DNA from: Bacteroidota bacterium
Lineage (GTDB): Bacteria; Bacteroidota; Bacteroidia; Palsa-965
Direction of reading: 5' to 3'
DNA length: 64,000 nucleotides
NCBI GenBank assembly: GCA_046335555.1
Contig: JBKDHA010000023.1
Span: 1,153 to 65,152, forward strand
The position numbers were made by a program, and so were the translations under genes. The first letter of the stretch is position 1. The number at the start of each line of letters is the position of its first letter. Below the pieces are notes generated by a model. That model worked only from the letters and a program-made list of their open reading frames with translations. It did no database searches and had not been told where the DNA came from. This document shows positions 2,705 to 40,659 of this stretch, in pieces.

Positions 2705-3712
2705 ATGGCCAACATCAGACACAACTGGACAATTCAGGAACTTCAGGAAGTTTACAACCGTCCGCTTCTCGAACTTATTCACGAAGCAGCATCCGTTCAC
2801 CGGTTGCATCACAACAGTCGGGCGGTGCAGGTTAGTTCACTGCTTTCGATAAAAACCGGAGGCTGCCCCGAAGATTGCAGCTACTGTCCGCAAGCAGCCC
2901 GCTACCACACTGAGGTAAAAGTACACAAGCTGCTTCCGGTAAAAGAAGTGGTTGAAACCGCCGAAAAAGCGAAAGCCGCAGGCGCATCGCGCATGTGTTT
3001 GGGAGCAGCCTGGCGCGAAGTACGCGATAACCGTGATTTTGATCAGGTGCTGGATATGGTGAAAGCCATTAACAATATGGATATGGAAGTATGCTGCACA
3101 TTAGGCATGCTTACAGAAGAACAGGCTGTGAAATTGGCCGAGGCCGGCGTTTATGCTTACAATCACAACCTCGATTCATCCGAAGAATTTTACGGAGAAA
3201 TTATTTCTACCCGCAATTACGACGACCGTCTGAACACCTTGAAAAATGTGCGTAAAGCCGGTATGACGATCTGTTCGGGTGGCATTATAGGAATGGGCGA
3301 AACCGCAACCGATCGTTTGGGCATGCTCAAAACCCTCGCCAATATGGATCCGCATCCTGAGTCGGTGCCCATTAATGCGCTGGTTGCGGTAGAAGGAACA
3401 CCGCTTGAGGATCAGCCGCCGGTTCCGGTTTGGGATATGGTGCGCATGATTGCCACAGCCCGCATTGTGCTTCCGAAAACAGTGGTGCGCCTCTCGGCCG
3501 GTCGCAATGGCATGAGCGCCGAAGGACAGGCACTCTGCTTTATGGCCGGAGCCAATTCTATTTTTGCCGGAGAAAAATTACTCACTACACCCAATCCGGC
3601 ATTTGATGCCGATATGGAACTGTTCCGCATTCTTGGTCTTGAGCCGCAAACACCCTTTGCCAAAGGCCGTCCAAAACATTTAACGCCTGCCGAAGAAACC
3701 CTGCAATCCTGA
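2705..3712 (+). CDS. bioB: Biotin synthase
   Basis: Radical-SAM motif [10 protein letters not shown], with the overall sequence and length (335 aa) typical of BioB. It is first in a bio gene string. Confidence 0.9.
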
Positions 3713-4422
3713 TGAAAAAACTTCACATTATCACGTTCAGCTTTTTATTTGTTGCCGCCGCTGCCATTGCGCAGCCGGGGGCGCGTACTGATGTGAAGAA
3801 AAATATGGATAAGCAATTGGTCTATTTCGGTCACGGCTGGGGATCGGCTAAATGGAATTCGGCGCTTTCACAAACTTCGCTTTACGACCGCCAAGGCATT
3901 GTAGTTGAAACAGGTACGTTCAATTTCAAAGCAACAAGTCCTTATACATCGTGGGACGGAGGCGTGCTGTTTCCTTTTGGCCGTGTGCGTGCAGGTTTGG
4001 GATTGAGCTTCGAGAAATACATTTTATCAACGATTACACTTCAGAATACATCGGCACCGCTAATTTTCGATGAGAGTTTCAGGTTTGATGTGATTTACGG
4101 ACAGTTTGAATTGCCGTTGTTTCCCGAAGCACGTTCGGGCGTTTCGGCCTCATTGAACTTGCGTGTGGGCTATTTCAACTTCACAGGAGTTCAGCGTATC
4201 AATTTATTCGGCAATGATAACCCTTCAAATAATTGGATGATTAATTTTTCGCCGGTAGTTGATTATTGTATTTGGGGTAATTTCTTTGTGTATGCACAGC
4301 CGCAGGCCGGGATTAAAATTTTCAGCAGCGAAGCAGTTGATCCGGGCGGCACGGTGAAGCATACTATTTTTTCGTACAGCCTTCAGGCCGGGCTGCGTTT
4401 CGATCCTTCAAAGGAACGATGA
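3712..4422 (+). CDS. Hypothetical secreted protein, predicted outer-membrane beta-barrel, embedded in the biotin operon
   Basis: Signal peptide [21 protein letters not shown]. There are repeated alternating hydrophobic/polar strand-like stretches: GLGLSFEKYILSTITL, LNLRVGYFNF, FFVYAQPQAGIKIF, IFSYSLQAGLRF. The start overlaps the bioB stop (TGATG) and the stop overlaps the bioF start (ATGA). Confidence 0.6.
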   Translation: MKKLHIITFSFLFVAAAAIAQPGARTDVKKNMDKQLVYFGHGWGSAKWNSALSQTSLYDRQGIVVETGTFNFKATSPYTSWDGGVLFPFGRVRAGLGLSFEKYILSTITLQNTSAPLIFDESFRFDVIYGQFELPLFPEARSGVSASLNLRVGYFNFTGVQRINLFGNDNPSNNWMINFSPVVDYCIWGNFFVYAQPQAGIKIFSSEAVDPGGTVKHTIFSYSLQAGLRFDPSKER

Positions 4423-5549
4423 GTAAAGCAATTTCTTCTTTTTCTGCCGATGATTTTCTGCGTGAAGCATTAGAAAAGCGAAAGCAGGAAAATGCGCTGC
4501 GCAGCCTTCAGCAAACACATTCGTTAATTGATTTTTGCTCGAATGACTATTATGGTCTGTCGCGTTCCAATGCATTTGCCGAAGTGCTTGAAAAAGCAGC
4601 TGCCGGTTTGAGCAATGGCTCTGGCGGTTCGCGATTGCTGGCTGGAAATACTGCTTTTACAGAAGAAGTTGAGCAAGAATTGGCAGCCTTGTTCAATGCT
4701 GAAGCAGCACTCATTTACAATTCGGGATATACAGCCAATGCCGGTTTTTTTCAAGCTGTGGCCGGGCGCAATTCCACAATTATTTATGATGAATTGATTC
4801 ACGCATCGGTGCGCGACGGCATCCTGCTTTCGCATGCAAAAGCATACAGCTTTAAGCATAATGACATCGAGCATTTACAAACCCTGCTCAGTCGCGCAGA
4901 AGGCTTGGTATTTGTTGCGGCTGAGTCGGTTTACTCGATGGATGGCGACTGCGCCCCGCTTTTAGCGCTGGCAGAATGCTGCGAAGCAGCCGGTGCAAAT
5001 CTGGTGCTGGATGAGGCACACGGCACCGGTGTTTTTTGGCCGGGCATGGCCGCCGAGCTTGGATTGGAGCGGCGGATTTTTGCGCGGCTGCATACATTCG
5101 GAAAGGCCGCCGGTGTACACGGTGCTGTTTGGTTAGGCTCGGCATTGCTGCGTAGTTACCTGATCAATTTTTCGCGGGCCTTCATTTATACTACGGCATT
5201 GCCGCCGCATGCAGTTATGGCTATCCGCGAATCGTGCCGTTACATAGCGGCGCATCCCGAACTTCGCAGCGAACTTCGCCGCCGGATTCAAACTTTTGCA
5301 GAAGCGGCAAAATTATATCCGCAGTTACAGTTACTGCCGTCCGAAACACCGGTTCAGGCGTTGCTGCTGCCGGGCAACGAACGTGCGCGCAGCTTAGCTG
5401 GAATGTTGCGGCAGCAAGGATTTGATGTAAGAGCGGTGCTGGCACCAACCGTGCCTCCGGGAAAAGAACGCATCCGGATTTGTTTGCATGTTCATAACTC
5501 GGAAACCGAAATCCATGATTTACTTCGATCAGTAGCGAATCTTAGTTGA
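4419..5549 (+). CDS. bioF: 8-amino-7-oxononanoate synthase, PLP-dependent
   Basis: 376 aa with class-II aminotransferase-like sequence, including GLSRSNAF, DEAHGTG and the lysine region HTFGKAAG. It lies between bioB and bioD. Confidence 0.85.
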   Translation: MSKAISSFSADDFLREALEKRKQENALRSLQQTHSLIDFCSNDYYGLSRSNAFAEVLEKAAAGLSNGSGGSRLLAGNTAFTEEVEQELAALFNAEAALIYNSGYTANAGFFQAVAGRNSTIIYDELIHASVRDGILLSHAKAYSFKHNDIEHLQTLLSRAEGLVFVAAESVYSMDGDCAPLLALAECCEAAGANLVLDEAHGTGVFWPGMAAELGLERRIFARLHTFGKAAGVHGAVWLGSALLRSYLINFSRAFIYTTALPPHAVMAIRESCRYIAAHPELRSELRRRIQTFAEAAKLYPQLQLLPSETPVQALLLPGNERARSLAGMLRQQGFDVRAVLAPTVPPGKERIRICLHVHNSETEIHDLLRSVANLS

Positions 5550-5591
5550 CAAATAAAAGTTTATTTGCGACATTTGGACACAGCACCCCAG

Positions 5592-6212
5592 ATGATGAGA
5601 AAACTGTTTGTTACCGGAATTGGAACGGACGTCGGAAAAACTGTTGCTTCCGCGATCCTTGTAGAGGCTTTAAAAGCCGACTACTGGAAGCCTGTACAAA
5701 CCGGCAGCTATTTTTCTACAGATTCCGACAAAATCCGCAAATACATTTCCAACACAGTTAGCCAGATTCATCCCGAATCGTATGTGCTGCGCCAGTATAT
5801 GTCGCCCCATGCCGCTGCCGAACTGGAAGACACACGCATCGAACTTTCCAGAATACAACTTCCGGAAACATCAAATACATTAATTATTGAAGGAGCGGGT
5901 GGTTTAATGGTTCCGCTCAACGAAGAGGAATTTATTCTTGATCTGATCATAAAATTTGAAGCCGAAGTAATTGTTGTTATTCAGAATTACCTCGGCAGTA
6001 TAAATCACACTTTACTTACGCTTGATGTGCTTCGCTTCCGTAATGTTCCGGTTGCAGGATTGATTTTTAATGGTCCGCCGCATCAGCTTTCGGAAGACAT
6101 CATTCTTCGGCACAGCGGTTTGCGCTGTATCGGCCGAATCATGAAAGAAGGCATCATCAACCAGCAGGTCATCAGCAAATACGCTTCGCAGTTTGATTTG
6201 CAGCCGGCGTAA
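5592..6212 (+). CDS. bioD: Dethiobiotin synthetase
   Basis: MRKLFVTGIGTDVGKT P-loop typical of BioD. The ORF opens at 5565 but an internal Met at 5592/5595 is the likely start. Confidence 0.85.
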   Translation: MMRKLFVTGIGTDVGKTVASAILVEALKADYWKPVQTGSYFSTDSDKIRKYISNTVSQIHPESYVLRQYMSPHAAAELEDTRIELSRIQLPETSNTLIIEGAGGLMVPLNEEEFILDLIIKFEAEVIVVIQNYLGSINHTLLTLDVLRFRNVPVAGLIFNGPPHQLSEDIILRHSGLRCIGRIMKEGIINQQVISKYASQFDLQPA

Positions 6213-6244
6213 GCAGCACAGGCATCGCGCTTATCTTTGCGGTT

Positions 6245-7522
6245 ATGAAATCCGGTTCACTTTCTGAGCGCGACAGCAAAACAGTTTGGCATCCGTTTAC
6301 GCCGCAGTTGCCGGCGCACGAAGCAACAGCACTTGTGCGGGGCAGCGGAGCATTACTTTTTGATGAAAGCGGTCGCAGTTATATTGATGCAACAGCATCG
6401 TGGTGGGTGAACCTGCACGGGCATGCGCATCCGTACATTGCTCAAAAAATTACGGAGCAACTGCATACACTGGAGCATGCAATTTTCTCAGGCTTTACGC
6501 ATGCTCCGGCTGTTGAACTTGCCGAGCGGCTGTTGCAAAAACTACCTTATCTGAGCAAAGTTTTTTATTCTGATGATGGTTCTACAGCCGTAGAAGTTGC
6601 GCTGAAAATGGCTTTGCAGTATTGGCACAACAAAGGCACACCGCGCAGCGTAATTGTAGCTTTTGAAAATGCCTATCACGGCGATACGTTTGGCGCTATG
6701 TCGGCCGGTGCGCGCAATGTGTTCAGCCGTGCATTCGGGCCGCTGCTGTTTGATGTGGTGCATATTCCTGTTCCGCTGCCGGGTTCAGAAGCTGCAGCAG
6801 AACAGGCATTGGAAAATGTGCTGAAAACAAATAATGTTGCAGCCTTTATTGCTGAGCCATTGATACAGGGTGCTGGCGGCATGATTATGTATGAAGCCGA
6901 AGCGTTGAGCAGGCTCATTGTAAAATGCCGTGCACATCAGGTGCCTGTAATTGCCGACGAAGTAATGACCGGTTTCGGCCGTACAGGAACTTGGTTTGCA
7001 ACCGACCAGTGCAGCGCAAAGCCCGATATGGTTTGTTTATCGAAAGGCTTAACCGGAGGTTTTCTTCCGCTCGGCGCAACACTTTGCACGGCCGAAATAC
7101 ATGCCGCATTTTTAACATCCGACCGCACGCGCACATTTTTTCACGGGCATTCCTATACAGCCAATGCCACGGCCTGCGCGGCTGCGGTGGCAAGTTTTGA
7201 TTTGCTGGATGCACCGGCCGCGCAGGAGCAGATTGCCAAACTGAGTAAGTATCAGCAACAGCAAACGAAGAAATTTGGTGAACACCGGGCTGTTGCTGCT
7301 GCACGATGTTTAGGTACTGTTGCTGCTTTTGAAATACGCAGCCCGGAAAGTACATCTTATCTCAATCCGGTGAGTGAGCGTGTGCATCCGTTCTTTCTTG
7401 AACGAGGCATTATTCTTCGTCCGCTCGGCAATATTATATATGTGCTGCCGCCTTATTGCATAACAGAAGAGCAGCTGGAACAGGTGTATAACAGTCTCAG
7501 TGAATTTTTAGAAACCTGCTGA
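6245..7522 (+). CDS. bioA: Adenosylmethionine-8-amino-7-oxononanoate aminotransferase
   Basis: 425 aa class-III aminotransferase (SWWVNLHGH, YHGDTFGAMS, DEVMTGFGRTG) in the biotin gene context. Confidence 0.85.
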   Translation: MKSGSLSERDSKTVWHPFTPQLPAHEATALVRGSGALLFDESGRSYIDATASWWVNLHGHAHPYIAQKITEQLHTLEHAIFSGFTHAPAVELAERLLQKLPYLSKVFYSDDGSTAVEVALKMALQYWHNKGTPRSVIVAFENAYHGDTFGAMSAGARNVFSRAFGPLLFDVVHIPVPLPGSEAAAEQALENVLKTNNVAAFIAEPLIQGAGGMIMYEAEALSRLIVKCRAHQVPVIADEVMTGFGRTGTWFATDQCSAKPDMVCLSKGLTGGFLPLGATLCTAEIHAAFLTSDRTRTFFHGHSYTANATACAAAVASFDLLDAPAAQEQIAKLSKYQQQQTKKFGEHRAVAAARCLGTVAAFEIRSPESTSYLNPVSERVHPFFLERGIILRPLGNIIYVLPPYCITEEQLEQVYNSLSEFLETC

Positions 7523-19031: not shown

Positions 19032-19634
19032 TTATTTCTCTTTTCGCTGATACTGATTCGCCCGCACATTTTTTGCCGCCAGCTCAACGGTTTCATTAAT
19101 TCTTTTCAGCTTCGTTTCTTCGCGTTTGGCATTCATAATCCATTCAAGAATACCGCGTTTTACGGAGCGCGGAAAGGCGTCAAAATAGTCTTTGGCTATT
19201 TTGTTTTTGTTCAGTGCTGCTTCAAGTTCGGCGGGTAATTCAAGCTCTTCAACTTTGTCGAGTGCTGTCCAAGTGCCTGTTTTTTTCGCCAGTTCAATCA
19301 TGGCTAAACCGGCCGGAGCCATTTTGTTTTCGCTGAGCAGGTGTTCTACTTTGGCTTTATTTACTTTACTCCAATTGCTTTTCGGATTGCGCTTTGCGAA
19401 ATACTGATAATAACTTTCTGCATCACGCTTATTGATTTTACTGTCGATCCAGCCAAAGCAAATCGCTTCGTCAACGGCTTCGCTGTAATAAACACTGGGA
19501 ACTCCGCTTTCTTTACGGTAAATAATCAGAAACAAAGATTCTTCTTTCGCGTGATTTTTTGCTAACCATTTTCGCCATTCTTCTGCCGATTTAAAATGAA
19601 TGGCTGCATAGCCGAGATGTTTTTCAGCAGTCAT
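19032..19634 (-). CDS. YdeI/OmpD-associated family protein (paralog 1)
   Basis: 200 aa. The pattern FKSAEEWRKWLAKNH...FGWIDSK...PAGLAMIELAKKTGTWTALD is typical of the YdeI/OmdA family as I recall it. Confidence 0.55.
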   Translation of the reverse strand: MTAEKHLGYAAIHFKSAEEWRKWLAKNHAKEESLFLIIYRKESGVPSVYYSEAVDEAICFGWIDSKINKRDAESYYQYFAKRNPKSNWSKVNKAKVEHLLSENKMAPAGLAMIELAKKTGTWTALDKVEELELPAELEAALNKNKIAKDYFDAFPRSVKRGILEWIMNAKREETKLKRINETVELAAKNVRANQYQRKEK

Positions 19635-19693
19635 GGTAATTTATCGTTAAGCACAATTGGAACAGTTCAAATTAAGAATATGTTTTTATTGTT

Positions 19694-20296
19694 TCAAATT
19701 CCCTTCGGTTGGGGATGATTCGCCCGCACATTTTTTGCTGCAAGTTCAACGGTTTCAGCTATCCGTTTCTGTCGTGTTTCCGGGCGTTTGGCATTCAAAA
19801 TCCAATGCAGAATCAAGCGTTTCGCCGATTTGGGAAACGCATTAAAATTATCGCTGGCTTTTTTATTTTTCTTTAGTGCTGCAATAAAATCATCAGGCAA
19901 TTCCAGCGAATCTACTTTGTCGAGTGCTGTCCATGTACCCGTTTGCTGTGCAAGCTCAATCATGGCTAAACCAGCAGGAGTAATTTTACCGTCCTGCATC
20001 AAACGCGCTACGTTTTCCCTGTTTATTTTACTCCAATGGCTTTTGGGTTTGCGCGGCGAAATGTATTGATAGAAACTTTCGTGGTTGCGACTAACTCTTT
20101 TTCCATCTATCCAGCCAAAACAAATCACCTCATCTACCACTTCATTCCAATACACAGTTTTCACGTCCGAATCTTTTCGGTAAATAATCAGAAAGATTGG
20201 AGTGGACTGTGCGTGGTTCTTTTCCAGCCATTTTCGTAATTCGGCTGCCGATTTGAAATAAATTGCCGGATAACCGAGATGTTGTTCTGTCGCCAT
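19694..20296 (-). CDS. YdeI/OmpD-associated family protein (paralog 2, tandem duplicate)
   Basis: 200 aa, roughly 55% identical to the adjacent paralog and fully colinear with it. Confidence 0.55.
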   Translation of the reverse strand: MATEQHLGYPAIYFKSAAELRKWLEKNHAQSTPIFLIIYRKDSDVKTVYWNEVVDEVICFGWIDGKRVSRNHESFYQYISPRKPKSHWSKINRENVARLMQDGKITPAGLAMIELAQQTGTWTALDKVDSLELPDDFIAALKKNKKASDNFNAFPKSAKRLILHWILNAKRPETRQKRIAETVELAAKNVRANHPQPKGI

Positions 20297-30014: not shown

Positions 30015-30091
30015 ATTAAACTTTCCGCAACATCCTGCAAAAAGAGAGCCGCACAAGTTTGTGCAGCTCTCATAACATCAATCAAATAACA

Positions 30092-30883
30092 TTATTCTTT
30101 TTCAGCTTCTTCTTCCGGCTGCGGAATCGACTTCTTGGGGAAGTTGAACAAAACGCTGGTCAAAATCGGTAAGCCGAAAATTAGAACTGTGAGAATTGAG
30201 ATATACACATCTGCATCATGCGCGAGGAAATTGCTTACCGGATGCTTGGGATAGAAGTGCTCAATCAGCGAGAACAGCAGCTTAAAGCCCAAAATACCAA
30301 TTACAACAAAGGCTGATGTTTCAAGAAATGTATAGCGTTCCATAAGCTTTACAAAAGCCTGCGCCACAAAACGCATCGCCAGAATGCCTATGAATACACC
30401 TACCCAAATCAGCACAAGGTTTTTGCTGAATGCAACGGCTGCAAAAACATTGTCGATGGAGAATGCAAGATCCATTAATTCAACAAGTGCAACCGTAGCC
30501 CAGAATTGTCCCATCCAACCAACGGTAGCGCGATAAAGCCAATTCGATTTCTTGTCGAGTGTATCATCATCTTTTTCAGGCGTCATTTTACCTTTAAAAT
30601 AATCAAATACAAGATAAAGCAGGTAAAGTCCGCCAAGTGGTTTCAGCCACCAGATTTTGATGAGCCATGCGGCAAACAATAAACACAAACCGCGAAATAC
30701 ATACGCACCGATAATGCCATATTTCAACGCTTTGTTGCGCTGCTCTTTTGGCAAATCCATTACCATTGTAGCCAATACAGCAGCATTGTCAACCGAAAGC
30801 AAACTTTCGATGATAACCAGATTGCCAATTACCGCCAGGGCCGGCAGCGGGTTATTTATAATTTCCTGAATATACTCTTGCAT
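30092..30883 (-). CDS. terC: TerC-family integral membrane protein
   Basis: 263 aa polytopic membrane protein with the paired TerC signature motifs LSVDNAAVLA and FSIDNVFAAVA. Confidence 0.85.
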   Translation of the reverse strand: MQEYIQEIINNPLPALAVIGNLVIIESLLSVDNAAVLATMVMDLPKEQRNKALKYGIIGAYVFRGLCLLFAAWLIKIWWLKPLGGLYLLYLVFDYFKGKMTPEKDDDTLDKKSNWLYRATVGWMGQFWATVALVELMDLAFSIDNVFAAVAFSKNLVLIWVGVFIGILAMRFVAQAFVKLMERYTFLETSAFVVIGILGFKLLFSLIEHFYPKHPVSNFLAHDADVYISILTVLIFGLPILTSVLFNFPKKSIPQPEEEAEKE

Positions 30884-30907: not shown

Positions 30908-32437
30908 TTAATTAGCTACTAATTGAATTACAACAAGCCTTCCGCCTTCTTCGGCCGAAAGCAGCAACTTCTTGCCGTCGGTAAGTTCTACCATTTCTTT
31001 CGGGGCAATGAGTTTGTCTTCTGTAAGGTCTTTAAGTCCGCTCATCGTTTGGTTGACCAGCATCCATTTTCCGCCGTGAAAAACGAAATAGCCAACCGGC
31101 TTGCGCTGTTCGGGTGTCAGTTTTTCGTTGGGTGCAATGTTGCGGTTAATGTGCCAGGGATAAAGATACTGATTGTGATACACCATTACACGATGCTTTT
31201 CCTCCGTCCATTTTCCGGGCGAACGTTGTGCATACAAATTCAGAATCGGTAATTGTCCTTTATACACTGTGCCGCAGAACGGACAAGTAGGCCGTGTTGA
31301 ATTATCAAATACAAACCATTTCTGATCGCATTTCGGGTTTTGACAGGGCTGCATCAAATCAACTGTTTTGATAAGTGCATTTTCCCAGTCGTCGGCTGTT
31401 GGACGCTGCATTGGATTATGCAAACCGGTGATGAAGGCATCGTCAAACAGCTTTTTCAGATACGGGCCGGTTATGGTGTACGGAATCTTGTTGACGTCGG
31501 CCCAGGGCAATTGCGTTGGCTTTACCTGATTGAGCTTCGGGCGGTTGGTGGCATCAGTAGGATGCTCGACAAACAAAGCTTTTTGTCCCATCGAAAGCTC
31601 TTCGTCTTTCTGCGCATCGAGGTCATTCACTTTTCCGCCGCGCAACGGGTGACGGTAAAGCAAGTACATATAAATCATTACAGCCAGCGCATGCCGGTCG
31701 GTATTGATTGACGGGAGTTTGCGGCCAGCATCTGTTTTAGGCAGATGCTTTGTAGCCATAACTTCAGGCGCAATAAAATCGGGTGTGCCAATTACATCAG
31801 GCGGAAATTTTCCGGGAACTACAAGTCCGTCGATATCAATTATGGCTGCATTGCCGGTCATCGGATCAATCAATACATTTTTGTACGAAAGATCAGAATG
31901 CGCCAAACCGGCAGCGTGCATTCGTCGCACTGCGCGTGCAATACGTAAACAAATCAGCACATACTTGAACCAATCGCTCAGTTCACGCTTATCGAGATGC
32001 AGTTTGAAAGCAGGATTGCGAAACTGCGCGGCTGCAAACCATTTGCCTTCTTTTTCTTTCCCGGCAATACTTGCAATTTGTGCAGCAGCAGCATTGTAGC
32101 CATACGTAAAGAAAAAATGCTTCTGGTAAACCGGAGCAACAATTCCGATTTTTCCGTTGTACTCAACTACCTTGGTAGGCCAGCAATACAGGTCTTTCCA
32201 GTAATCGCCGCCGGCCTGATTGAAGATGCGTTCGCGGTAGGTATTTACAATTGTTGTAAGCCGTTCTTTCGTAGCATTATATTCTGATGTGCTCAGTTTA
32301 TCGCGAAAAAATGCAACTACATACGATTTGTCGGGACTGAAATACACATCCTTCAAACCGCCCTGCATCGGATCGCCGTTATCCACATACTGAACCTGTG
32401 AACCGTCGAGCGCATTTATTGTTATTGTCTTTGACAT
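30908..32437 (-). CDS. Atypical Ser/Thr protein kinase with C-terminal CxxC...CxxC zinc-ribbon and beta-rich tail (kinase of the TerY-P triad)
   Basis: Catalytic loop HAAGLAHSDLSYKNVLID (HxDxxxxN), activation segment IDIDGL ... GTPDFIAPEV (DFG-like ... APE). A Cys cluster CQNPKC-x14-CPFC follows, then a ~100-aa tail. Confidence 0.75.
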   Translation of the reverse strand: MSKTITINALDGSQVQYVDNGDPMQGGLKDVYFSPDKSYVVAFFRDKLSTSEYNATKERLTTIVNTYRERIFNQAGGDYWKDLYCWPTKVVEYNGKIGIVAPVYQKHFFFTYGYNAAAAQIASIAGKEKEGKWFAAAQFRNPAFKLHLDKRELSDWFKYVLICLRIARAVRRMHAAGLAHSDLSYKNVLIDPMTGNAAIIDIDGLVVPGKFPPDVIGTPDFIAPEVMATKHLPKTDAGRKLPSINTDRHALAVMIYMYLLYRHPLRGGKVNDLDAQKDEELSMGQKALFVEHPTDATNRPKLNQVKPTQLPWADVNKIPYTITGPYLKKLFDDAFITGLHNPMQRPTADDWENALIKTVDLMQPCQNPKCDQKWFVFDNSTRPTCPFCGTVYKGQLPILNLYAQRSPGKWTEEKHRVMVYHNQYLYPWHINRNIAPNEKLTPEQRKPVGYFVFHGGKWMLVNQTMSGLKDLTEDKLIAPKEMVELTDGKKLLLSAEEGGRLVVIQLVAN

Positions 32438-32457: not shown

Positions 32458-33888
32458 TCAGTAAAGTACGGCAATAGTACGATCATCGTGATTGCCCGGC
32501 GACCAGAAATCCATCCAACTCAGTAATTGAGTTGCTGCATTTTCGTTTTCAGGTGCAAACTGAACGGCAGCGCCATCAGCATTTTCGCCGCCGAGGTCTT
32601 TCCAGAGTTCATGCCATTTTTCGATGCGGCCGAGATTGGCATCGGTTTGAAATTTTGGATCTGTAATACCGTCGCTCATCAAAATAATAGCTGTAAAATC
32701 AGATACGATTCTGAAACCAATGCGTTTGTAGAACGAATTATCGGCAAAAATTTCGGGCATCGTCAGGAAGCGTGTTTGTCCGGCAAACTCTCCACCATCA
32801 GGCGTTCCGAGCACATTTATTTCATTATCGTCGGCACGATAAATTCCCATGCCTCCGTCGCCTACCATAAACGACATTACACTGTAACCGAAATCGAATT
32901 TGCGAAGCAAAACAAAGAGCAGTGTAGTCGAAAAGTCTTTCAGTTTTACCTCTGTGCCGGATTCGGTTGCTGCTGCGGCTGCAAAATTGGCAATCTGCTG
33001 ATGAACTTCAAACGGTGCTTTGCTGAACTTTTGCGTAAGAAACTCGTTGAGCGCATTTTTACTGGCTTCGTCTTTCAGGTTGTGGTAAGCAGTAATTATA
33101 TCATCCAGCTGTTTGTATTCATCAGCAGAAATGTTTTTGAAATAGTTCACCACACCATCACAGGCAATCTTCGATCCTTTGCGCGAAAACTTTGCACTTC
33201 CTGCTCCGTCGGCAACAGCAATTAATGCATAACCTGTTTGCTCATCGAAGAAGAACCCAAAATCATCATCGCGGAAAATACCTTCATGTGCGTGACTGCG
33301 TCCGCGTTTTGAGGCAACAACCAATTGATGCCCGAGTATTGCTGCCGATGTACATGTTTCATCATCTTTCCAGTACGGCGCATCGGTTGGAGACGGAATA
33401 TTTTTCCAAAGTTTTTTCGGATCCGGATTAATCACGAGCGAAATTTCCTTCTCGTGTTTGGCTTCGGTATTGGTTTTTACATCAAGTGTAAAAATCATTT
33501 TTACCCGGAACTCTCCTTGTTCAAGCGGTGTGCCTGAAATTGTGCCTGTAGCCGGATCGTAAATGATGCCGAGGCTTTGCGGGAATTCGAGATGAAAACT
33601 TTTTATTTTTTCGAGACCATATTTCGGCAGCGAAAATACTTGCGAGTAAGCTTTGTCAACCGTGCCGTTTGGCAGTTGCAGCAGTTTCTCGCGAATGTTG
33701 CTCAGTGCAATGTTTTCTTCCCAGTTCATAATAAGCGTTTCTGCGGTTGATGAAATCAGCCGGCATTGTTCAATTACTTCTGCACTGTCGATATATGAAT
33801 CGAGCAGGGCAGAGTGCTTGTCGGTGATTTCAACATTGCGCTGTTTGAGCAGTTGCGTGATGTATAAATGGCGTTGCGGTTTTTCCAT
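32458..33888 (-). CDS. PP2C-family Ser/Thr protein phosphatase with ~180-aa N-terminal extension containing a putative Ig-like (He_PIG-type) domain
   Basis: PP2C motifs SKRGRSHAHEG, IAVADGAGS, TTLLFVLL, VGDGGMG, ILMSDGITD, NHDDRTIAVL. The N-terminal DPATGTISGTPLEQGEF resembles a putative Ig domain. Confidence 0.75.
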   Translation of the reverse strand: MEKPQRHLYITQLLKQRNVEITDKHSALLDSYIDSAEVIEQCRLISSTAETLIMNWEENIALSNIREKLLQLPNGTVDKAYSQVFSLPKYGLEKIKSFHLEFPQSLGIIYDPATGTISGTPLEQGEFRVKMIFTLDVKTNTEAKHEKEISLVINPDPKKLWKNIPSPTDAPYWKDDETCTSAAILGHQLVVASKRGRSHAHEGIFRDDDFGFFFDEQTGYALIAVADGAGSAKFSRKGSKIACDGVVNYFKNISADEYKQLDDIITAYHNLKDEASKNALNEFLTQKFSKAPFEVHQQIANFAAAAATESGTEVKLKDFSTTLLFVLLRKFDFGYSVMSFMVGDGGMGIYRADDNEINVLGTPDGGEFAGQTRFLTMPEIFADNSFYKRIGFRIVSDFTAIILMSDGITDPKFQTDANLGRIEKWHELWKDLGGENADGAAVQFAPENENAATQLLSWMDFWSPGNHDDRTIAVLY

Positions 33889-35888: not shown

Positions 35889-36527
35889 TTAAACTACAAT
35901 GTTAACTTCGGGCGGCGGCGGCGGCAATTCATTAATGCCACCAACTTCGGTGCCTGAGTTTTCTACTTTCTGACTGCCGGTGCTGATTGAAGCCGACACC
36001 CATTTGAAGAATGCTTTGATGGTTGATGAATCAGCAGTATCAAGTCCAACTACAACATCCGTAACTTGTTTGAGAATGCTGGTATCGGCTCCTGAACCTG
36101 CAGCGCATGCAACGATTACGCCGGTTTTACGCTTCTTCAGCTCGGCAAGTCCGTTTTGCCATTGGTCTGTCGGACTTCCGTCGGTCATGATAAAAATGAG
36201 CGGTTTCCAATCGCCTTTTGCTTCGGCAGTTCCGCGGGCTACTTCGCGGTCGATGCATTGTGCAAGAAGGTTTAATCCTTCGCCCAAAGCTGTAGTGCCG
36301 GTGGCGCGAATTTCCTGCATTTGGAATGAAGCCAGATCAGTGAGCGGAATCAACTGACGTGCGGCTGAGTCGAATGTAATTACACTGATGTAAGCCGTTT
36401 CAAGTGCATGCGGATCTTGGCGAAGTGTTGAGATCAAAACTTGTACGCCATTCTTCACAGCCTCAATCGGCTCGCCGGTCATTGAGCCCGAAGTATCGAG
36501 CAAAAGGTAAACAGGTAATTTTCGCAT
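35889..36527 (-). CDS. TerY-like vWA domain protein (paralog 3, no TerY-C tail)
   Basis: MRKLPVYLLLDTSGSMTGEPIEAV and IFIMTDGSPTD. 212 aa, about 50% identical to paralog 2. Confidence 0.8.
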   Translation of the reverse strand: MRKLPVYLLLDTSGSMTGEPIEAVKNGVQVLISTLRQDPHALETAYISVITFDSAARQLIPLTDLASFQMQEIRATGTTALGEGLNLLAQCIDREVARGTAEAKGDWKPLIFIMTDGSPTDQWQNGLAELKKRKTGVIVACAAGSGADTSILKQVTDVVVGLDTADSSTIKAFFKWVSASISTGSQKVENSGTEVGGINELPPPPPEVNIVV

Positions 36528-36618: not shown

Positions 36619-37170
36619 TTAGTTGTAGCGGGCTAAATAGTCGCCGAGTCCGCCTTTCATGCCCATGCCAACAGCTTCAAACTTCCATTCAGCACCGCGC
36701 TTGTAGATACGGCCAAACTCAACGGCTGTTTCAATTGAGAAGTCTTCGTCAAGCTCATATTTCACCAATTCAGCACCCGAAGCATCAGCAATGCGGATGA
36801 ATGAATTACGAACCTGTCCGAAATTCTGGCGGCGTGTATCGGCATCGTGAATGGTAACTACAATACATATTTGTGTAACACGCTGATCGATGCGTGAAAG
36901 GTCAACAAGAACCTGCTCATCATCACCATCGCCATCGCCGGTCTTGTTGTCGCCGGTATGTGTAACAGCACCGTCGGGCGAGTTGGCATTGTTGTAAAAA
37001 ATAAAAAACTCATCGGCAGGAATTTTTCCGGCTTCGGTAAGCATAAACACCGAAGCATCAAGATCGAAAGCTTCGCCTGAGGCTGATGAATTGGTATCCC
37101 AGCCAAGACCGATGGTGAATTTTTGCGCATTAAGGGTTTCGCGCTGCCCTTTCTGAAGATTAATTGCCAT
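36619..37170 (-). CDS. terD: TerD-family tellurium-resistance/stress protein (Ca-binding TerD domain)
   Basis: MAINLQKGQ...GLGWD...FDLDASVFML...DEFFIFYNN...GDNKTGDGDGDDEQV...VVTIHDA...RRQNFGQV matches my memory of plasmid R478 TerD along the full length. Confidence 0.9.
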   Translation of the reverse strand: MAINLQKGQRETLNAQKFTIGLGWDTNSSASGEAFDLDASVFMLTEAGKIPADEFFIFYNNANSPDGAVTHTGDNKTGDGDGDDEQVLVDLSRIDQRVTQICIVVTIHDADTRRQNFGQVRNSFIRIADASGAELVKYELDEDFSIETAVEFGRIYKRGAEWKFEAVGMGMKGGLGDYLARYN

Positions 37171-37990
37171 GATGTGTATGAATATGTTGTTGAATAGTAT
37201 GGAGGTTAGTTCGGTATTCGTTCATCAGGTGATAATTATTTCCGTAAGCAAGATCACAAAGACGAAGTAAAAATTCAGGTGGCACATTTTCGAGCAGCAA
37301 CTGAAGGTCATTTGATCCGGTACTCAGAAGGAATTTTATCACGCGGGTATTAAAAGTAAAGATTTTCCCCCGAATGAGTTCCAGCAAACTGCTTACATCT
37401 TTTACCTCGCTGTAGTTCAGTACATTTTCAAACTCAGGGGCAATTGATGTATTAACCAGTTCAGCGAAATAGAGAAACATAAAATTCCCTTCAATACTCA
37501 GTCGCTCAATTTGCTGTTTCAGTACAAGTTCATGACTTCCGGTAATGCGTATATCGTCGAGCAGCAATACATTTCGGTTACTCAGAAAAACCTTGTCGAT
37601 GTGATACGTTCCTTGCGTAATAAGGTTAAACCGCTCTTCAAAACTCAGATTTCCGTAATCAATGCTATATGTTTTATAACGGTGAATGCGTGATTCGAGC
37701 AGCGATGGTTTACCCGAAGCAGCCAGAAACCGATTGATTTCGCGCACAAAATACTTCATCATTGCGCACGACGCAGTTGGAATGAAGTCATAAGGACTTG
37801 GAACCGCAACTGTTTGAGTTTCGCCGGTGAGTAGTTGTTTGTGTGTTTCAATAAAGCCTCGCGCAAGCGCAATTCCGAAGTTTTCGGCTTCGGTTTCATC
37901 ACCAAATTTGAAACGGCTGTATGCCTCTGCAGAAAACGATAAATCTGAAGCAGAGTTAATTTTATGCAGCGAAAATGAACTGAAACTCAT
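37160..37990 (-). CDS. Ter-operon-associated phosphoribosyltransferase-like protein (PRTase fold with C-terminal extension)
   Basis: PRPP-binding-type motif NVLLLDDIRITGSHE (hydrophobic x4, DD, x, TG). 276 aa, overlapping the terD start by 11 nt and the HAD stop by 4 nt. Confidence 0.7.
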   Translation of the reverse strand: MSFSSFSLHKINSASDLSFSAEAYSRFKFGDETEAENFGIALARGFIETHKQLLTGETQTVAVPSPYDFIPTASCAMMKYFVREINRFLAASGKPSLLESRIHRYKTYSIDYGNLSFEERFNLITQGTYHIDKVFLSNRNVLLLDDIRITGSHELVLKQQIERLSIEGNFMFLYFAELVNTSIAPEFENVLNYSEVKDVSSLLELIRGKIFTFNTRVIKFLLSTGSNDLQLLLENVPPEFLLRLCDLAYGNNYHLMNEYRTNLHTIQQHIHTHHGN

Positions 37991-38682
37991 AACTGAAATA
38001 AAATACGCAGCGAAGGTACTTCTTTATCATACAATAAACTCCGAAAACCGAAGTCTAACGCACCTTTAACATCTGCAATCGGGTTATCGCCGGTATGCAA
38101 TATCTGCTCTTTATTTAAAGTCTTTATTGTGCTGATATTATTGTAAGCACTTGCAAAAAAATCGGGCGATGGTTTGGCTGCACCATGTTCATCAGAATAC
38201 AACTGGAAATTCATGTATTCAGCAATGCCCAGTTGGTCAAGTCTTTTGCGCAGAGTACGGCCTTTTATAAAGCCTGTATTGCTGAGTAAACTGATGGTGA
38301 TATTGCTGCTGCGAAGTTCTTCAAACACTTCATGCGTATCAGCATTCAGTAAGCGGGGAGGATGCTGAAAAAACAGCGCTTCCATTTCTTCATAAAAAGC
38401 AGAGAGCTGCCCGGCTGTTACTTCATCCGCATTTTTGCTGAGGGCATTCAGTGCAAGAATCAGTAAACTTTCGTAGTGCGCAGTTTGTCCGCACATCACA
38501 CTGATATGATCACACAAACGGTCGAAATGCCGCAGTGTAGCCGATACTTCATTCAGCGACTGAGTCAAACCAAAACGGGATGCAAGCAATGCATCCCGTT
38601 TTGGTTTAAACTCAGGATCAGAAGCAATCAGCGTCATCCATAAATCAAATGAAATATGGTGTATGCCGCTGCTTTTTATCAT
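37987..38682 (-). CDS. HAD-superfamily hydrolase (phosphatase)
   Basis: Motif I ISFDLWMTL (DxDx[TV]L) and motif IV ILHTGDNPIADVKGA. 231 aa, translationally coupled to the flanking genes. Confidence 0.7.
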   Translation of the reverse strand: MIKSSGIHHISFDLWMTLIASDPEFKPKRDALLASRFGLTQSLNEVSATLRHFDRLCDHISVMCGQTAHYESLLILALNALSKNADEVTAGQLSAFYEEMEALFFQHPPRLLNADTHEVFEELRSSNITISLLSNTGFIKGRTLRKRLDQLGIAEYMNFQLYSDEHGAAKPSPDFFASAYNNISTIKTLNKEQILHTGDNPIADVKGALDFGFRSLLYDKEVPSLRILFQL

Positions 38683-39356
38683 TGATAAACGTAGTCACGA
38701 AGAATTTCGAGGAAATTATCGGTAGGCTGCGGATTGCCGAGCGCGCGGAATTTCCAGGTGCCGTCTTTGCGGTAAACCTCAGCAAAAATCATAGCTGCAG
38801 CGCCGCCCATGCTTTCATCACCTGAAATATTGTAGCGGGCAATTTCCTTGCCGCGAGCATCTACAGCGCGAATGAAGGCATTCTCGATCATCGAGAAGTT
38901 CTGGTTTTTCTGGCGGCCCTGATAAATGGTTACCATAAACAGCACTTTCGAATAACGCTGATCGAGTGAATCGAGTTTGGCTACAATTTGCTCATCATCG
39001 CCATCGCCTGCACCTGTGCGGTTATCGCCGGTAAGCCAGATGTGGCCGCTCGGGTGACGCTGCGAATTAAAGTAAATTACATCGCTTTCAAAAAGCGCAA
39101 TCTTCATGCCGTTGGCATGTTGCACTGTGCGGCCAAGATTAGCTACTTTATCGTTCGAATCGAGCAGGAAAGCAACGGCATCAAGATCATAATCTTCGCC
39201 TTTTTTTCCGCCAAACAGTTTGCCGAGGAATCCGCCGCCGCTTTGTTTGCGCATATCCCAGCCCAAACCAATGGTAACGGTTGAAAGGTCAAAACTTTCG
39301 CCTTTGTCGTTTTTGCGAAGGTCAATGGTTTGACCCTTCTGAAGGTTAATTGCCAT
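38679..39356 (-). CDS. TerD-family protein with a Gly/Lys-rich insertion
   Basis: MAINLQKGQTIDL...GLGWD..., with the insert GGGFLGKLFGGKKGEDYDLDAVAFLL and the motif GDNRTGAGDGDDEQI. Confidence 0.85.
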   Translation of the reverse strand: MAINLQKGQTIDLRKNDKGESFDLSTVTIGLGWDMRKQSGGGFLGKLFGGKKGEDYDLDAVAFLLDSNDKVANLGRTVQHANGMKIALFESDVIYFNSQRHPSGHIWLTGDNRTGAGDGDDEQIVAKLDSLDQRYSKVLFMVTIYQGRQKNQNFSMIENAFIRAVDARGKEIARYNISGDESMGGAAAMIFAEVYRKDGTWKFRALGNPQPTDNFLEILRDYVYQ

Positions 39357-39380: not shown

Positions 39381-39956
39381 TTATTTGATCACCTGTCCGG
39401 TGTAATATTTCTCAACGAAGAACGAAAGATCTTTTTGATAACCAATGCCCGAAGCTTCAAACTTCCAGCCGTTATCGCGGCGGTAGAGACGACCGAATTC
39501 AACAGCTGTTTCAATCGAAAAATCTTCTCCTAATTCATACTTGCAAATTTCGCTGCCGTCGCGGTTGTCAACGATACGAATGTATGAATTGCGAACCTGT
39601 CCGAAATTTTGGCGGCGCTCAACGGCACTGTGAATGGTTACCACAAAAAGTAATTCCTGAATATCATTACTTACTTTCTGGAGGTCAACCATGATCGTTT
39701 CATCATCACCTTCGGCACTGTTTCCGCCTGTCGGATCATCCCCGGTATGATGCAGCGCACTGTCTGGCGAATCGGGCTGATTGTAAAAAATGAAATGCCC
39801 CTCAGAGGGAATCATTCGGTTTCCGTTCAGCATAAATGCTGAAGCATCAAGATCGAAATCGTGACCGGTTCCTTCGTTCGGATTCCAGCCAAGACCTACG
39901 CTCAGATTCGACAGTGAAATGTCAACCTTTTGGCCTTTTTGAAGATTAATAGCCAT
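39381..39956 (-). CDS. TerD-family protein (first gene of the operon)
   Basis: MAINLQKGQKVDISL..GLGWNPNEGTGHDFDLDASAFML...HTGDDPTGGNSAEGDDETI...VVTIHSAVERRQNFGQV. Confidence 0.9.
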   Translation of the reverse strand: MAINLQKGQKVDISLSNLSVGLGWNPNEGTGHDFDLDASAFMLNGNRMIPSEGHFIFYNQPDSPDSALHHTGDDPTGGNSAEGDDETIMVDLQKVSNDIQELLFVVTIHSAVERRQNFGQVRNSYIRIVDNRDGSEICKYELGEDFSIETAVEFGRLYRRDNGWKFEASGIGYQKDLSFFVEKYYTGQVIK

Positions 39957-40272
39957 GTTAAGAGTTAATTATCGAATTATAAAATGATTTATTGCGGGTT
40001 AATTCTGCTCCAAAATAGGAATTTTCGATAAAAAAGCCGGTATTTTTCATTTATCTGAGAGCCCGGTTAAATTTTATCCTTCGAATTTGTTACGGCTCAT
40101 TTTTCCTCATCCTGCGTTCTGTTTTTTGTCGATCCTCTCCAAGGATCGCTTGCAAAACAGGCCTTGTCTGAGAAAAAATGAACTCATAACAAATCTCAAA
40201 AACAAATTTTAACCAGACTCTAAAGAAAACCGAAAAATTTTTTCAGCCCAATCAGGAATGTACCTTTACTGC

Positions 40273-40659
40273 ATGAAAAAGATAATTACTTCAGCAGGCG
40301 CTCCGGCTCCGATTGGGCCATACAGCCACGGTGTTTTGGTTAATAATATGCTTTTCATTTCCGGACAGGTGGGCAAAGATCCTGTTACCGGTGAAATTCA
40401 TAACAGCACAATTGAAGCTGAAACCACCCGTGTTATGGAAAACCTTAAAAGCATTCTTACAGATGCTGGTATGGATTTTTCGCATGTTGTAAAAACAACC
40501 ATCTTCCTTACCGATCTCAACAACTTTGCAAAAGTGAATGGTGTTTACGGCAGTTATTTTGCCGAAGGAGCCGATTATCCGGCCCGCGAAACTGTTCAGG
40601 TATCACGTCTTCCGCTTGATGTGAGTGTAGAAATTTCGATGATTGCCGTAAACGCATAA
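40273..40659 (+). CDS. ridA: RidA/YjgF-family reactive-intermediate deaminase
   Basis: MKKIITSAGAPAPIGPYSHGV...FISGQ...TTIFLTDLNNF, typical of RidA. Start chosen at an internal Met of the 40258 ORF. Confidence 0.85.
   Translation: MKKIITSAGAPAPIGPYSHGVLVNNMLFISGQVGKDPVTGEIHNSTIEAETTRVMENLKSILTDAGMDFSHVVKTTIFLTDLNNFAKVNGVYGSYFAEGADYPARETVQVSRLPLDVSVEISMIAVNA

Follow-up and report, generated by a model that had tools for sequence, protein, structure and literature searches.

A HAD–PRTase_3 gene pair in a Bacteroidota Ter operon and its predicted two-step ribosylation chemistry

Introduction

Ter systems have been described by Aravind's group as including nucleobase phosphoribosyltransferases (PRTases) and HAD phosphoesterases making a signal that is sensed by TerB and TerD (PMC7824862). 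As far as a secondary account from 2025 (PMC11994780) of the work of Anantharaman 2012 goes, the biosynthetic module of these systems comes in two-gene and five-gene forms, always contains a PRTase together with a HAD enzyme and has a pyrimidine-derived ribonucleoside as its likely product. TerB has been proposed in the literature to link such modules to TerD and TerC. A two-step chemistry is also known from ribofuranosyltransferases, in which phosphoribosyl pyrophosphate (PRPP) is the donor and a HAD phosphoribose phosphatase at the N-terminus acts next (PMC11294581), and the phosphatase CrpP of Haemophilus influenzae Bcs3 is active on PRPP-derived ribofuranose-5-phosphate and keeps only the first Asp of its DXD motif (PMC10299916). 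Here we analyse a Ter operon on a 64-kb stretch of DNA, called the window throughout, from Bacteroidota bacterium GCA_046335555.1 (contig JBKDHA010000023.1), in which genes for a HAD hydrolase and a PRTase of family PRTase_3 (PF15610) lie between terD copies.

As two-gene modules have already been described in the part of the literature summarised above, the arrangement is not new; the locus is an instance of this known configuration of two genes, which the Pfam family PF15610 already embodies. The pair probably forms a conserved two-enzyme cassette accompanying Ter genes (TerD, TerC, TerY) and acting by ribosylation followed by dephosphorylation, with a product that acts in the Ter system.

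Results

An earlier note on this sequence had placed a PRTase gene and a HAD gene between terD copies, which was confirmed by the open reading frames (ORFs), by Pfam matches to PF15610 and HAD families and by PF02342 matches on the flanks (E 1e-54 to 1e-71). The genes concerned are the following.

39381..39956, minus strand: terD paralog 1, first gene of the operon, 191 aa, PF02342 (E 4e-68)
38679..39356, minus strand: terD paralog 2, 225 aa, carrying an insert, PF02342 (E 1.6e-54)
37987..38682, minus strand: HAD hydrolase, 231 aa, PF00702, PF13419 and PF13242
37160..37990, minus strand: PRTase_3 protein, 276 aa, PF15610 (E 1.5e-72)
36619..37170, minus strand: terD paralog 3, 183 aa, PF02342 (E 2.1e-71)

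The junction sequences also agree with the overlap lengths of 4, 4 and 11 nt given in that note: the stop of terD paralog 2 overlaps the HAD start by 4 nt (ATGA; ...CAATGATAAAA), the HAD and PRTase_3 genes share a second 4-nt ATGA overlap (...TTATGAGTTTC), and the PRTase_3 stop overlaps the start of terD paralog 3 by 11 nt (ATGGCAATTAA).

The PRTase_3 protein matches PF15610 over its full length (244.6 bits against a cutoff of 28.7; profile positions 4-263 of 264). Its PRPP loop, V141-LLLDDIRITGSHE-154, consists of a hydrophobic strand, the acidic pair D145-D146 and then T150-G-S-H-E at the N-terminus of a helix. The PRPP-binding residues are retained on alignment, with D145, D146, G151, H153 and E154 invariant among 66 aligned homologs. 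An AlphaFold2 (AF2) model derived from 66 homologs (predicted local distance difference test score, pLDDT, of 93.6) places the loop at the junction of strand 139-148 and helix 152-163 and divides the protein into a type I PRTase core (residues ~1-180) with a flexible loop (~100-116) and a C-terminal helical domain (187-274). Comparison of the model with the Protein Data Bank (PDB) by Foldseek gave HGPRT, PyrR, UPRT and APRT as top matches (E 1e-5 to 3e-4, probability 1.0) in N-terminal alignments of ~150-210 columns, and some family members additionally match PF00156 at the PRPP loop. Going by this model, PRTase_3 is an enzyme of the PRTase fold whose PRPP loop is intact. For the conserved C-terminal domain Foldseek found no structural counterpart in the PDB, and the modelled domain is a candidate acceptor-binding 'hood'; its conserved residues include E188, N189, N192, Y193, N214-T-R216, K219, N251, Y253, H254 and Y259. 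The label 'ComF-like' derives from the Pfam description alone: no ComF chain was among the top 50 fold matches, no PDB sequence matched and the protein has no N-terminal zinc finger. NCBIfam holds no model for the PRTase_3 or TerD proteins, and a literature search for PF15610 and 'PRTase ComF-like' returned no papers.

Motif I of the HAD protein, previously read as DxD, has to be corrected. It is ISFDLWMTL, that is D13-L14-W15, with Trp where the Asp at position +2 (Asp+2) is expected. When 78 sequences were aligned, namely the window protein with 77 Bacteroidota orthologs, 77 of them showed the pattern S-F-D-[LV]-W-x-T-[LI] and one had a gap; the Trp is likewise found in eight fusion proteins and in the phage and plasmid orthologs described below. 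The nucleophile D13 is invariant in the HAD alignments, as are motif II (S134-N135-T136), K170 of motif III and motif IV (G198-D199-N200-x-x-A-D204) among 60 sequences. The two other motifs singled out earlier, VLLLDDIRITGSHE and GDNPIAD, are present and conserved in the alignments.

The AF2 model of the HAD protein (pLDDT 95.5) has a Rossmannoid core and an alpha-helical C1 cap, which places it in subfamily IA. Foldseek yielded template modelling (TM) scores of 0.6-0.75 to HAD IA structures (PH0253/2om6, PH0459, NANP, YfnB and, from the polysaccharide ribofuranosyltransferase 7shg, the domain that acts as phosphoribose phosphatase), and in a profile search of the PDB 2om6 (E 1.3e-17) and the 7shg phosphatase domain (E 2.5e-7) were both matched at full length. 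A search of the PDB with the N-terminal half of the profile, intended to show the alignment of motif I with 7shg, gave no relevant matches. In NCBIfam there were only sub-threshold matches to the REG-2-like, YjjG and YigB nucleotidase families, which are suggestive of nucleotide-type substrates but not diagnostic. The HAD protein is predicted to be a phosphoribosyl 5'-phosphatase.

The conservation of the pair was examined in 80 related loci (L-numbers below) of ~20 kb each, taken from at least 573 matching species-representative genomes; nearly all carry Bacteroidota labels, while two metagenome-assembled genome (MAG) labels say otherwise. The HAD gene lies immediately upstream of PRTase_3 in 74 of the 80 loci and a terD gene immediately downstream in 78, and the complete order HAD, PRTase, TerD is found in 74, a recurrence far above chance. 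Distances of -4, -1 or 0 nt are commonest between HAD and PRTase and of -11 or +2 nt between PRTase and TerD, the -11 overlap of the window being repeated in 25 of the 80. The pairing also occurs in F. johnsoniae, Sphingobacterium, a Hymenobacter plasmid, Rhizobium pRL10 and phages.

Further genes follow the cassette and two TerD genes in most relatives, namely those for TelA (PF05816; 65 of 80 loci) and DUF8226 (PF26677, ~320 aa, without a match in the Pfam copy searched; 63 of 80), for example in L006 (12150-14343), L021 (12028-14096) and L081 (10654-12731). This gene pair is missing from the window operon. TelA is missing in ten of the 67 loci with enough downstream flank, and nine of these ten carry, as the window does, the TerY-P triad of a TerY protein, a phosphatase and a kinase. 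The window locus is a minority architecture. The genes of ~365 and ~320 aa that follow the cassette in relatives were considered as the 'missing' ATP-grasp and TIM-barrel enzymes and rejected, as they are those of TelA and DUF8226. Extra operon genes sampled in relatives encode methyltransferases, PrsW, TerB_C together with BrxC/D, PgpA and ADP-ribosylglycohydrolase, and none of them is an ATP-grasp. Downstream of the cassette, a Chitinophaga MAG (L077, 14809-15714) has an ADP-ribosylglycohydrolase and a small methyltransferase, and a Chitinophagaceae MAG (L029, 16200-19312) a TerB_C-domain protein and a BrxC/BrxD-like ATPase.

The closest contig, CALRTD020000039.1 (L001), has the same operon with a 95% identical PRTase and is labelled 'MAG: Synechococcus sp. 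UW140'. A protein identical to its PRTase carries a Bacteroidota label elsewhere, and the contig is probably mis-binned; the label situation of L013, assigned to Hydrocarboniphaga, is similar.

A search of 1.84 billion representative sequences with the PRTase_3 profile resulted in 967 clusters. In at least 14 representatives of 486-529 aa the PRTase_3 match is confined to the C-terminal half. A HAD Pfam match was found in the N-terminal half of three of the five such representatives scanned, and all eight that were read (P0248, P0256, P0300, P0310, P0337, P0292, P0302 and P0320) carry D-[LF]-W at motif I. These HAD–PRTase_3 fusions recur in independent assemblies from several lineages. The three fusions whose contexts were looked up (P0310, P0256 and P0248; loci L085-L087) all lie in Ter loci, with the gene orders TerD-TerD-x-fusion-TerC, TerD-TerD-TerY-TerY-TerY_C-PP2C-kinase-fusion-TerC and, on a phage-like contig, TerD-fusion-vWA/TerF. 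Larger proteins of 785-952 aa contain two to four PRTase_3-matching stretches or OmpA/PD40 additions.

Using tblastn, PRTase_3 homologs with ~30% identity over >90% of the length were detected in 157 phage genomes, among them those of a Xanthomonas jumbo phage, of Rhizobium phages and of Stephanstirmvirinae phages infecting E. coli, Klebsiella and Citrobacter; homologs were also detected on 17 plasmids, mostly of Rhizobium. Every case examined among these tblastn matches has a DxW HAD gene directly upstream and no TerD within 5-7 kb. The pair of the Hymenobacter plasmid mentioned above is a divergent unit of its own that adjoins the ter operon. Examples of the cassettes without TerD nearby are the following.

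L090 4073-5613: phage cassette
L091 4327-5819: phage cassette
L093 6334-7816: phage cassette
L094 5318-6801: phage cassette
L092 6337-7840: Rhizobium pRL10 cassette

In Rhizobium phages the pair lies ~250 nt upstream of a nicotinamide mononucleotide (NMN) adenylyltransferase/Nudix gene and near purA and the dihydrofolate reductase (DHFR) gene. Citrobacter phage Tr1 has a TerC gene 3.5 kb downstream of the cassette. Record annotations of the phage and plasmid copies vary between 'orotate phosphoribosyltransferase', 'DNA methyltransferase' and 'hypothetical'. Because the pair is fused in several lineages and stands alone in phages and on Rhizobium plasmids, it can be regarded as self-sufficient: HAD(DxW) and PRTase_3 form a self-contained cassette.

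The five-gene pathway is represented by a cluster on Pantoea vagans pPag2 which is divergent from terZABCDE and encodes ATPgrasp_Ter (PF15632), PRTase_2+TRSP, a 254-aa HAD-like protein, StiP+PELOTA and C-C_Bond_Lyase (PF15617). The 254-aa 'hypothetical protein' (L088, 9344-10108) has no Pfam match and carries the motifs LCDLDDTLF and GLGDSLSD, by which it reads as the DxD-type HAD of this pathway. An hhalign comparison of PRTase_3 with the Pantoea PRTase_2 covered 37 columns at probability 0.5 and E 0.11, only in the stretch of the PRPP loop, where the PRTase_3 loop aligns to LVLIDDEATTGKT. The Pantoea HAD (DLDDT) and the window HAD (DLW) did not match each other in phmmer, and a phmmer search of the six-frame translation of the window with Pantoea and Taibaiella proteins found nothing at E<=10. 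Neither the Pantoea five-gene proteins nor TerB have a homolog in the 80 related loci at E<=1e-5. Within the window, Pfam scans of nearly all large ORFs and phmmer revealed no ATP-grasp, HpcH/C-C lyase, PRTase_2, StiP, TelA or TerB; six small ORFs far from the operon lay outside the Pfam scans and were covered by the phmmer check only.

Judged from these sequence comparisons, neither enzyme is orthologous to its counterpart in the five-gene pathway, and the cassette is not a degenerate form of this enterobacterial/Bacillus pathway. The earlier note was right that PRTase and HAD genes are present here without ATP-grasp or TIM-barrel partners in the window. Its view of the pair as a 'minimal' version of that set does not hold, given a different PRTase family, a different HAD subfamily and a self-contained pair with fusions and phage copies. 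As the enzymes belong to different families and subfamilies and neither an ATP-grasp nor a lyase accompanies them, the product is expected to be simpler or different. Of the two options that had been offered, a simpler ribosylated monophosphate which is then dephosphorylated is the best reading, whereas a supply of the missing steps from elsewhere is not supported by the searches of the window and the 80 loci, and nothing points to a need for it.

According to Pfam scans of its ORFs, the whole operon comprises 12 genes on the minus strand, from 39956 to 30092, in the order TerD-TerD-HAD-PRTase_3-TerD-TerY-TerY-membrane protein-TerY_C-PP2C-kinase-TerC. It is a stress or defence operon of the tellurite-resistance type in the genome of a freshwater Bacteroidota. 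The features downstream of terD paralog 3 are as follows.

35889..36527, minus strand: TerY-like vWA protein 1, PF00092/PF13519
35233..35868, minus strand: TerY-like vWA protein 2, PF00092/PF13519
34967..35236, minus strand: small membrane protein, 89 aa, YGGT-like, with a weak PF02325 match (E 2.8e-5) below the gathering score
33897..34946, minus strand: TerY vWA protein with a C-terminal TerY_C metal-binding domain, PF15616 (E 2.5e-42) and VWA
32458..33888, minus strand: PP2C protein phosphatase of the TerY-P triad, PF13672 (E 2.3e-36)
30908..32437, minus strand: Ser/Thr protein kinase of the TerY-P triad, PF00069 (E 9.5e-11)
30092..30883, minus strand: integral membrane protein TerC, final gene of the operon, PF03741 (E 3.8e-53)
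30044..30071, minus strand: terminator-like hairpin, 12-bp stem with 7 G-C pairs, followed by a T run

The TerY-P triad is complete (TerY vWA with PF00092 and PF15616, PP2C with PF13672, kinase with PF00069), and PADLOC, applied to the operon, returned generic kinase matches only and no TerY-P or other specific model. The position of the 89-aa membrane protein is conserved in many related loci that have TerY genes. The hairpin ~20 nt past the terC stop is the probable end of the operon. A scan for sigma-70 promoters gave sites no more numerous than in shuffled sequence, Bacteroidota promoters being outside the coverage of the tool.

The genes surrounding the operon are housekeeping ones; they encode a SPOR protein at one end and, at the opposite end, RidA, asparagine synthase, a methyltransferase and a ZIP transporter. 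Elsewhere in the window, a biotin-synthesis set (2705-7522, plus strand; radical-SAM BioB-like protein, class I/II aminotransferase, dethiobiotin-synthetase-like AAA_26 protein and class III aminotransferase) and two tandem OmdA/YdeI-family paralogs of 200 aa each (19032-20296, minus strand) provide an ordinary chromosomal context. Between the ridA-like gene (40258-40659, plus strand) and the first terD lies a palindromic element of 167 nt (40056-40222) with imperfect terminal inverted repeats (TAGAGTCTGGTTAAAATTT / TGAGAGCCCGGTTAAATTT), which can fold into a long hairpin (minimum free energy -69.9 kcal/mol, z = -6.0). It occurs once in the window and is missing from the closest relative, L001, though the upstream region is otherwise near-identical. 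Rfam has no family for this element or the region upstream of the operon. A riboswitch or conserved leader was rejected for these two reasons, and the element looks like an insertion resembling a miniature inverted-repeat transposable element (MITE).

Discussion

The cassette, which is conserved together with TerD, TerC and TerY genes, probably owes its role to two sequential reactions. PRTase_3 would bind PRPP and move ribose-5-phosphate to a nucleophile on a small acceptor, most simply a nucleobase-like heterocycle, and the first product would be a ribosyl-5'-monophosphate. The co-translated HAD enzyme would then take off the 5'-phosphate to leave a nucleoside-like ribosylated product. Within the Ter system this product may be an effector, or TerD-type proteins may respond to it as their signal or ligand. 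In chemical terms the cassette would be self-sufficient. For this pair the analysis establishes the families, the folds, the PRPP loop, the HAD phosphoryl-transfer residues apart from Asp+2, the pairing, the fusions, the translational coupling and the operon; the use of PRPP, the order of the reactions, the nature of the acceptor and the role of the product are what we infer. Both the two-step logic and a HAD enzyme without Asp+2 have precedents in the ribofuranosyltransferases and in CrpP.

Several points weigh against this proposal. Neither PF15610 nor this HAD subfamily has a characterised member. The PRTase_3 profile gave only spurious matches to PDB sequences (E>0.4), the structural TM-scores are modest (0.4-0.5 on the target) owing to the large unmatched C-terminal domain, and the top structural matches include PyrR, which has the PRTase fold but a regulatory function. 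The HAD enzyme has a near-invariant Trp in place of the general acid/base Asp+2. This second Asp of DxD serves as general acid/base in HAD phosphatases and its loss is strongly deleterious to phosphomonoester hydrolysis in many of them, so that the chemistry could differ here; by analogy with CrpP, the caveat is softened. The phage and plasmid cassettes without TerD indicate a role not necessarily tied to TerD sensing. Finally TerB, by the secondary source a companion of biosynthetic modules, is found neither in the operon nor in the window nor in the 80 loci.

A broader interpretation, which we consider rather unlikely though worth stating, sees the cassette as a mobile, self-contained ribosylating machine which Ter systems have in common with large phages and plasmids. 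A standard nucleobase would then not be the acceptor, and Trp+2 would mark a dedicated subfamily of phosphoribosyl-5'-phosphatases. The product could be a new signal or antimetabolite of nucleoside type that serves phages as well as hosts in their conflicts, or the pair could perform O- or N-ribofuranosylation of a macromolecule as CrpP/CriT do.

Unlikely as well, in our judgement, is a reaction in which PRPP serves to ribofuranosylate an acceptor other than a nucleobase (a protein side chain, glycan, lipid or another hydroxyl or amine) with subsequent 5'-dephosphorylation, a process with mechanistic parallels in the PRP-gPRT and CrpP-CriT ribofuranosyltransferases and in BtrL/BtrP-type O-ribosylation. 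The whole-length profile match of the HAD enzyme to the 7shg phosphatase domain, to which Foldseek adds E 1.8e-9 and a TM-score of 0.67, would fit such a process, but similarity at this level is usual among HAD IA enzymes. PRTase_3 itself has no detectable similarity to 7shg or any other PDB chain, and its fold matches are nucleobase PRTases; the gPRT domain is said by Kelly et al. 2022 to be a new glycosyltransferase (GT) fold. The large conserved C-terminal domain without a counterpart in nucleobase PRTases speaks for a different acceptor, and so do the order of the fusions, with HAD N-terminal and PRTase C-terminal as in the dual-domain ribofuranose (Ribf) transferases (PMC11294581), the retention of only the first Asp of DXD in CrpP as in the window HAD, and the description of CriT as resembling N-glycosidic PRPP transferases (PMC10299916). 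On the other hand, no glycan-biosynthesis genes lie beside the cassette in the loci examined, and the phage copies sit among nucleotide-metabolism genes.

It is quite improbable that PRTase_3 is instead a regulator that senses PRPP or nucleotides or binds nucleic acids, in the manner of PyrR, PurR or ComFC, with the HAD enzyme acting on another substrate such as a pyrophosphate, an acyl- or N-phosphate (good leaving groups) or a phosphoprotein. The presence of PyrR structures among the best fold matches, the Pfam name 'ComF-like' and the kinase/PP2C switch in the operon are in line with a regulator. The absence of Asp+2 is typical of HADs which act on activated phosphoryl groups or perform other chemistry, and a weak phmmer match to LHPP (2x4d) fits the same idea. 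However, the acidic pair and the phosphate-binding loop are strictly invariant and the flexible loop has many polar residues, a usual trait of catalytic type I PRTases; zinc-finger and DNA-binding domains are lacking; and tight coupling to, and fusion with, a phosphatase are a signature of sequential enzymes. Moreover, an active phosphoribose phosphatase without Asp+2 exists (PMC10299916).

Very doubtful is a place of the cassette in the NAD/nicotinamide or another salvage branch, or in the detoxification of a xenobiotic base as an exportable riboside, rather than in signalling. Some neighbours point in this direction, namely the NMN adenylyltransferase/Nudix, purA and DHFR genes of the Rhizobium phages, a NADAR gene ~4.5 kb upstream of the fusion on the phage-like contig, the ADP-ribosylglycohydrolase of L077 and an 'ADP-ribosylation' protein near the cassette of Klebsiella phage 05F01, and the literature ties Ter systems to xenobiotic resistance (PMC7824862). 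Yet these neighbours are single and non-recurrent, no similarity to known nicotinamide or nicotinate PRTases, which are type II, was seen, and dephosphorylation of NMN would oppose NAD synthesis.

The weakest explanation, that the pair is a reduced remnant of a multi-enzyme Ter pathway whose ATP-grasp and TIM-barrel steps come from genes elsewhere or from housekeeping enzymes, is highly improbable and largely refuted: a five-gene module does exist beside terZABCDE in Pantoea and the searches covered the window rather than the whole genome of the source organism, but the enzymes are non-orthologous, no homolog of ATPgrasp_Ter, C-C lyase, PRTase_2, StiP or TerB occurs in the window or the 80 loci, and the fusions and standalone phage and plasmid copies speak for a self-contained unit.

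To our knowledge, the mode of action of Ter systems in tellurite, colicin and phage resistance has stayed unsolved after decades, and we know of no identification of the small-molecule product predicted for their biosynthetic modules. The two-enzyme cassette offers the simplest way into this chemistry, as two proteins, or one if fused, and PRPP are to be reconstituted. It occurs in no fewer than 573 species-representative genomes, most of the examined ones being Bacteroidota, and also on Rhizobium plasmids and in more than 150 sequenced phages, of which those of E. coli and Klebsiella offer tractable genetics. The window locus introduces no new principle and has its value as a clean example. 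What has been clarified is that neither enzyme is an ortholog of those in the enterobacterial pathway, that the HAD enzyme has a near-invariant D-x-W motif and that fusions and copies outside Ter loci exist; the link of the HAD enzyme to phosphoribose phosphatases is a further addition.

Comparison with known systems

With the type I nucleobase PRTases (HGPRT, UPRT and APRT) and PyrR, PRTase_3 has the core fold and the architecture of the PRPP loop in common. It differs from them by the lack of similarity at the sequence level, by a His in place of the last Thr of TGxT, by an extra helical C-terminal domain, conserved and ~90 residues long, and by an N-terminal YSxFKFG motif that is conserved as well. 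For the HAD enzyme, profile (E 1.3e-17) and Foldseek (TM 0.75) both point to PH0253 (2om6), an uncharacterised HAD of Pyrococcus horikoshii, as the best relative in the PDB. Both have Trp at position +2, motif I of PH0253 being FDVWNTL, but PH0253 comes from an archaeon, no PRTase partner or function is known for it, and its sole annotation is 'probable phosphoserine phosphatase'.

PRP-gPRT (7shg) and CrpP/CriT of H. influenzae type b (Hib) Bcs3 resemble the cassette in the proposed two-step chemistry of PRPP transfer followed by removal of the 5-phosphate by a HAD enzyme. PRP-gPRT also shares with the fused forms an N-terminal phosphatase and a C-terminal transferase, and the HAD domains are related at the profile level (E 2.5e-7); CrpP, like the window HAD, is without the second Asp of DXD. 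In contrast to 7shg, PRTase_3 folds like a type I nucleobase PRTase, shares no sequence similarity with that protein and has no gPRT-type domain, and no polysaccharide gene context surrounds the cassette.

The five-gene cluster of Enterobacterales and Bacillus adjoins TerD/TerC genes, as the cassette does, and both hold a PRTase-fold enzyme and a HAD enzyme, with PRPP-based ribosylation and dephosphorylation as the presumed common logic. Here, however, the PRTase is PRTase_3 and not PRTase_2/TRSP or StiP, the HAD motif is DLW instead of DLDDT, and ATP-grasp, C-C lyase, a second PRTase and TerB are absent. The closest counterpart is the two-gene Ter module of Anantharaman, Iyer & Aravind (2012): as far as the available summary describes it, the PF15610 family, the HAD gene immediately upstream and the setting of TerD, TerC and TerY-P genes are all alike, and the window locus, without TelA, DUF8226 and TerB, differs from it in nothing essential.

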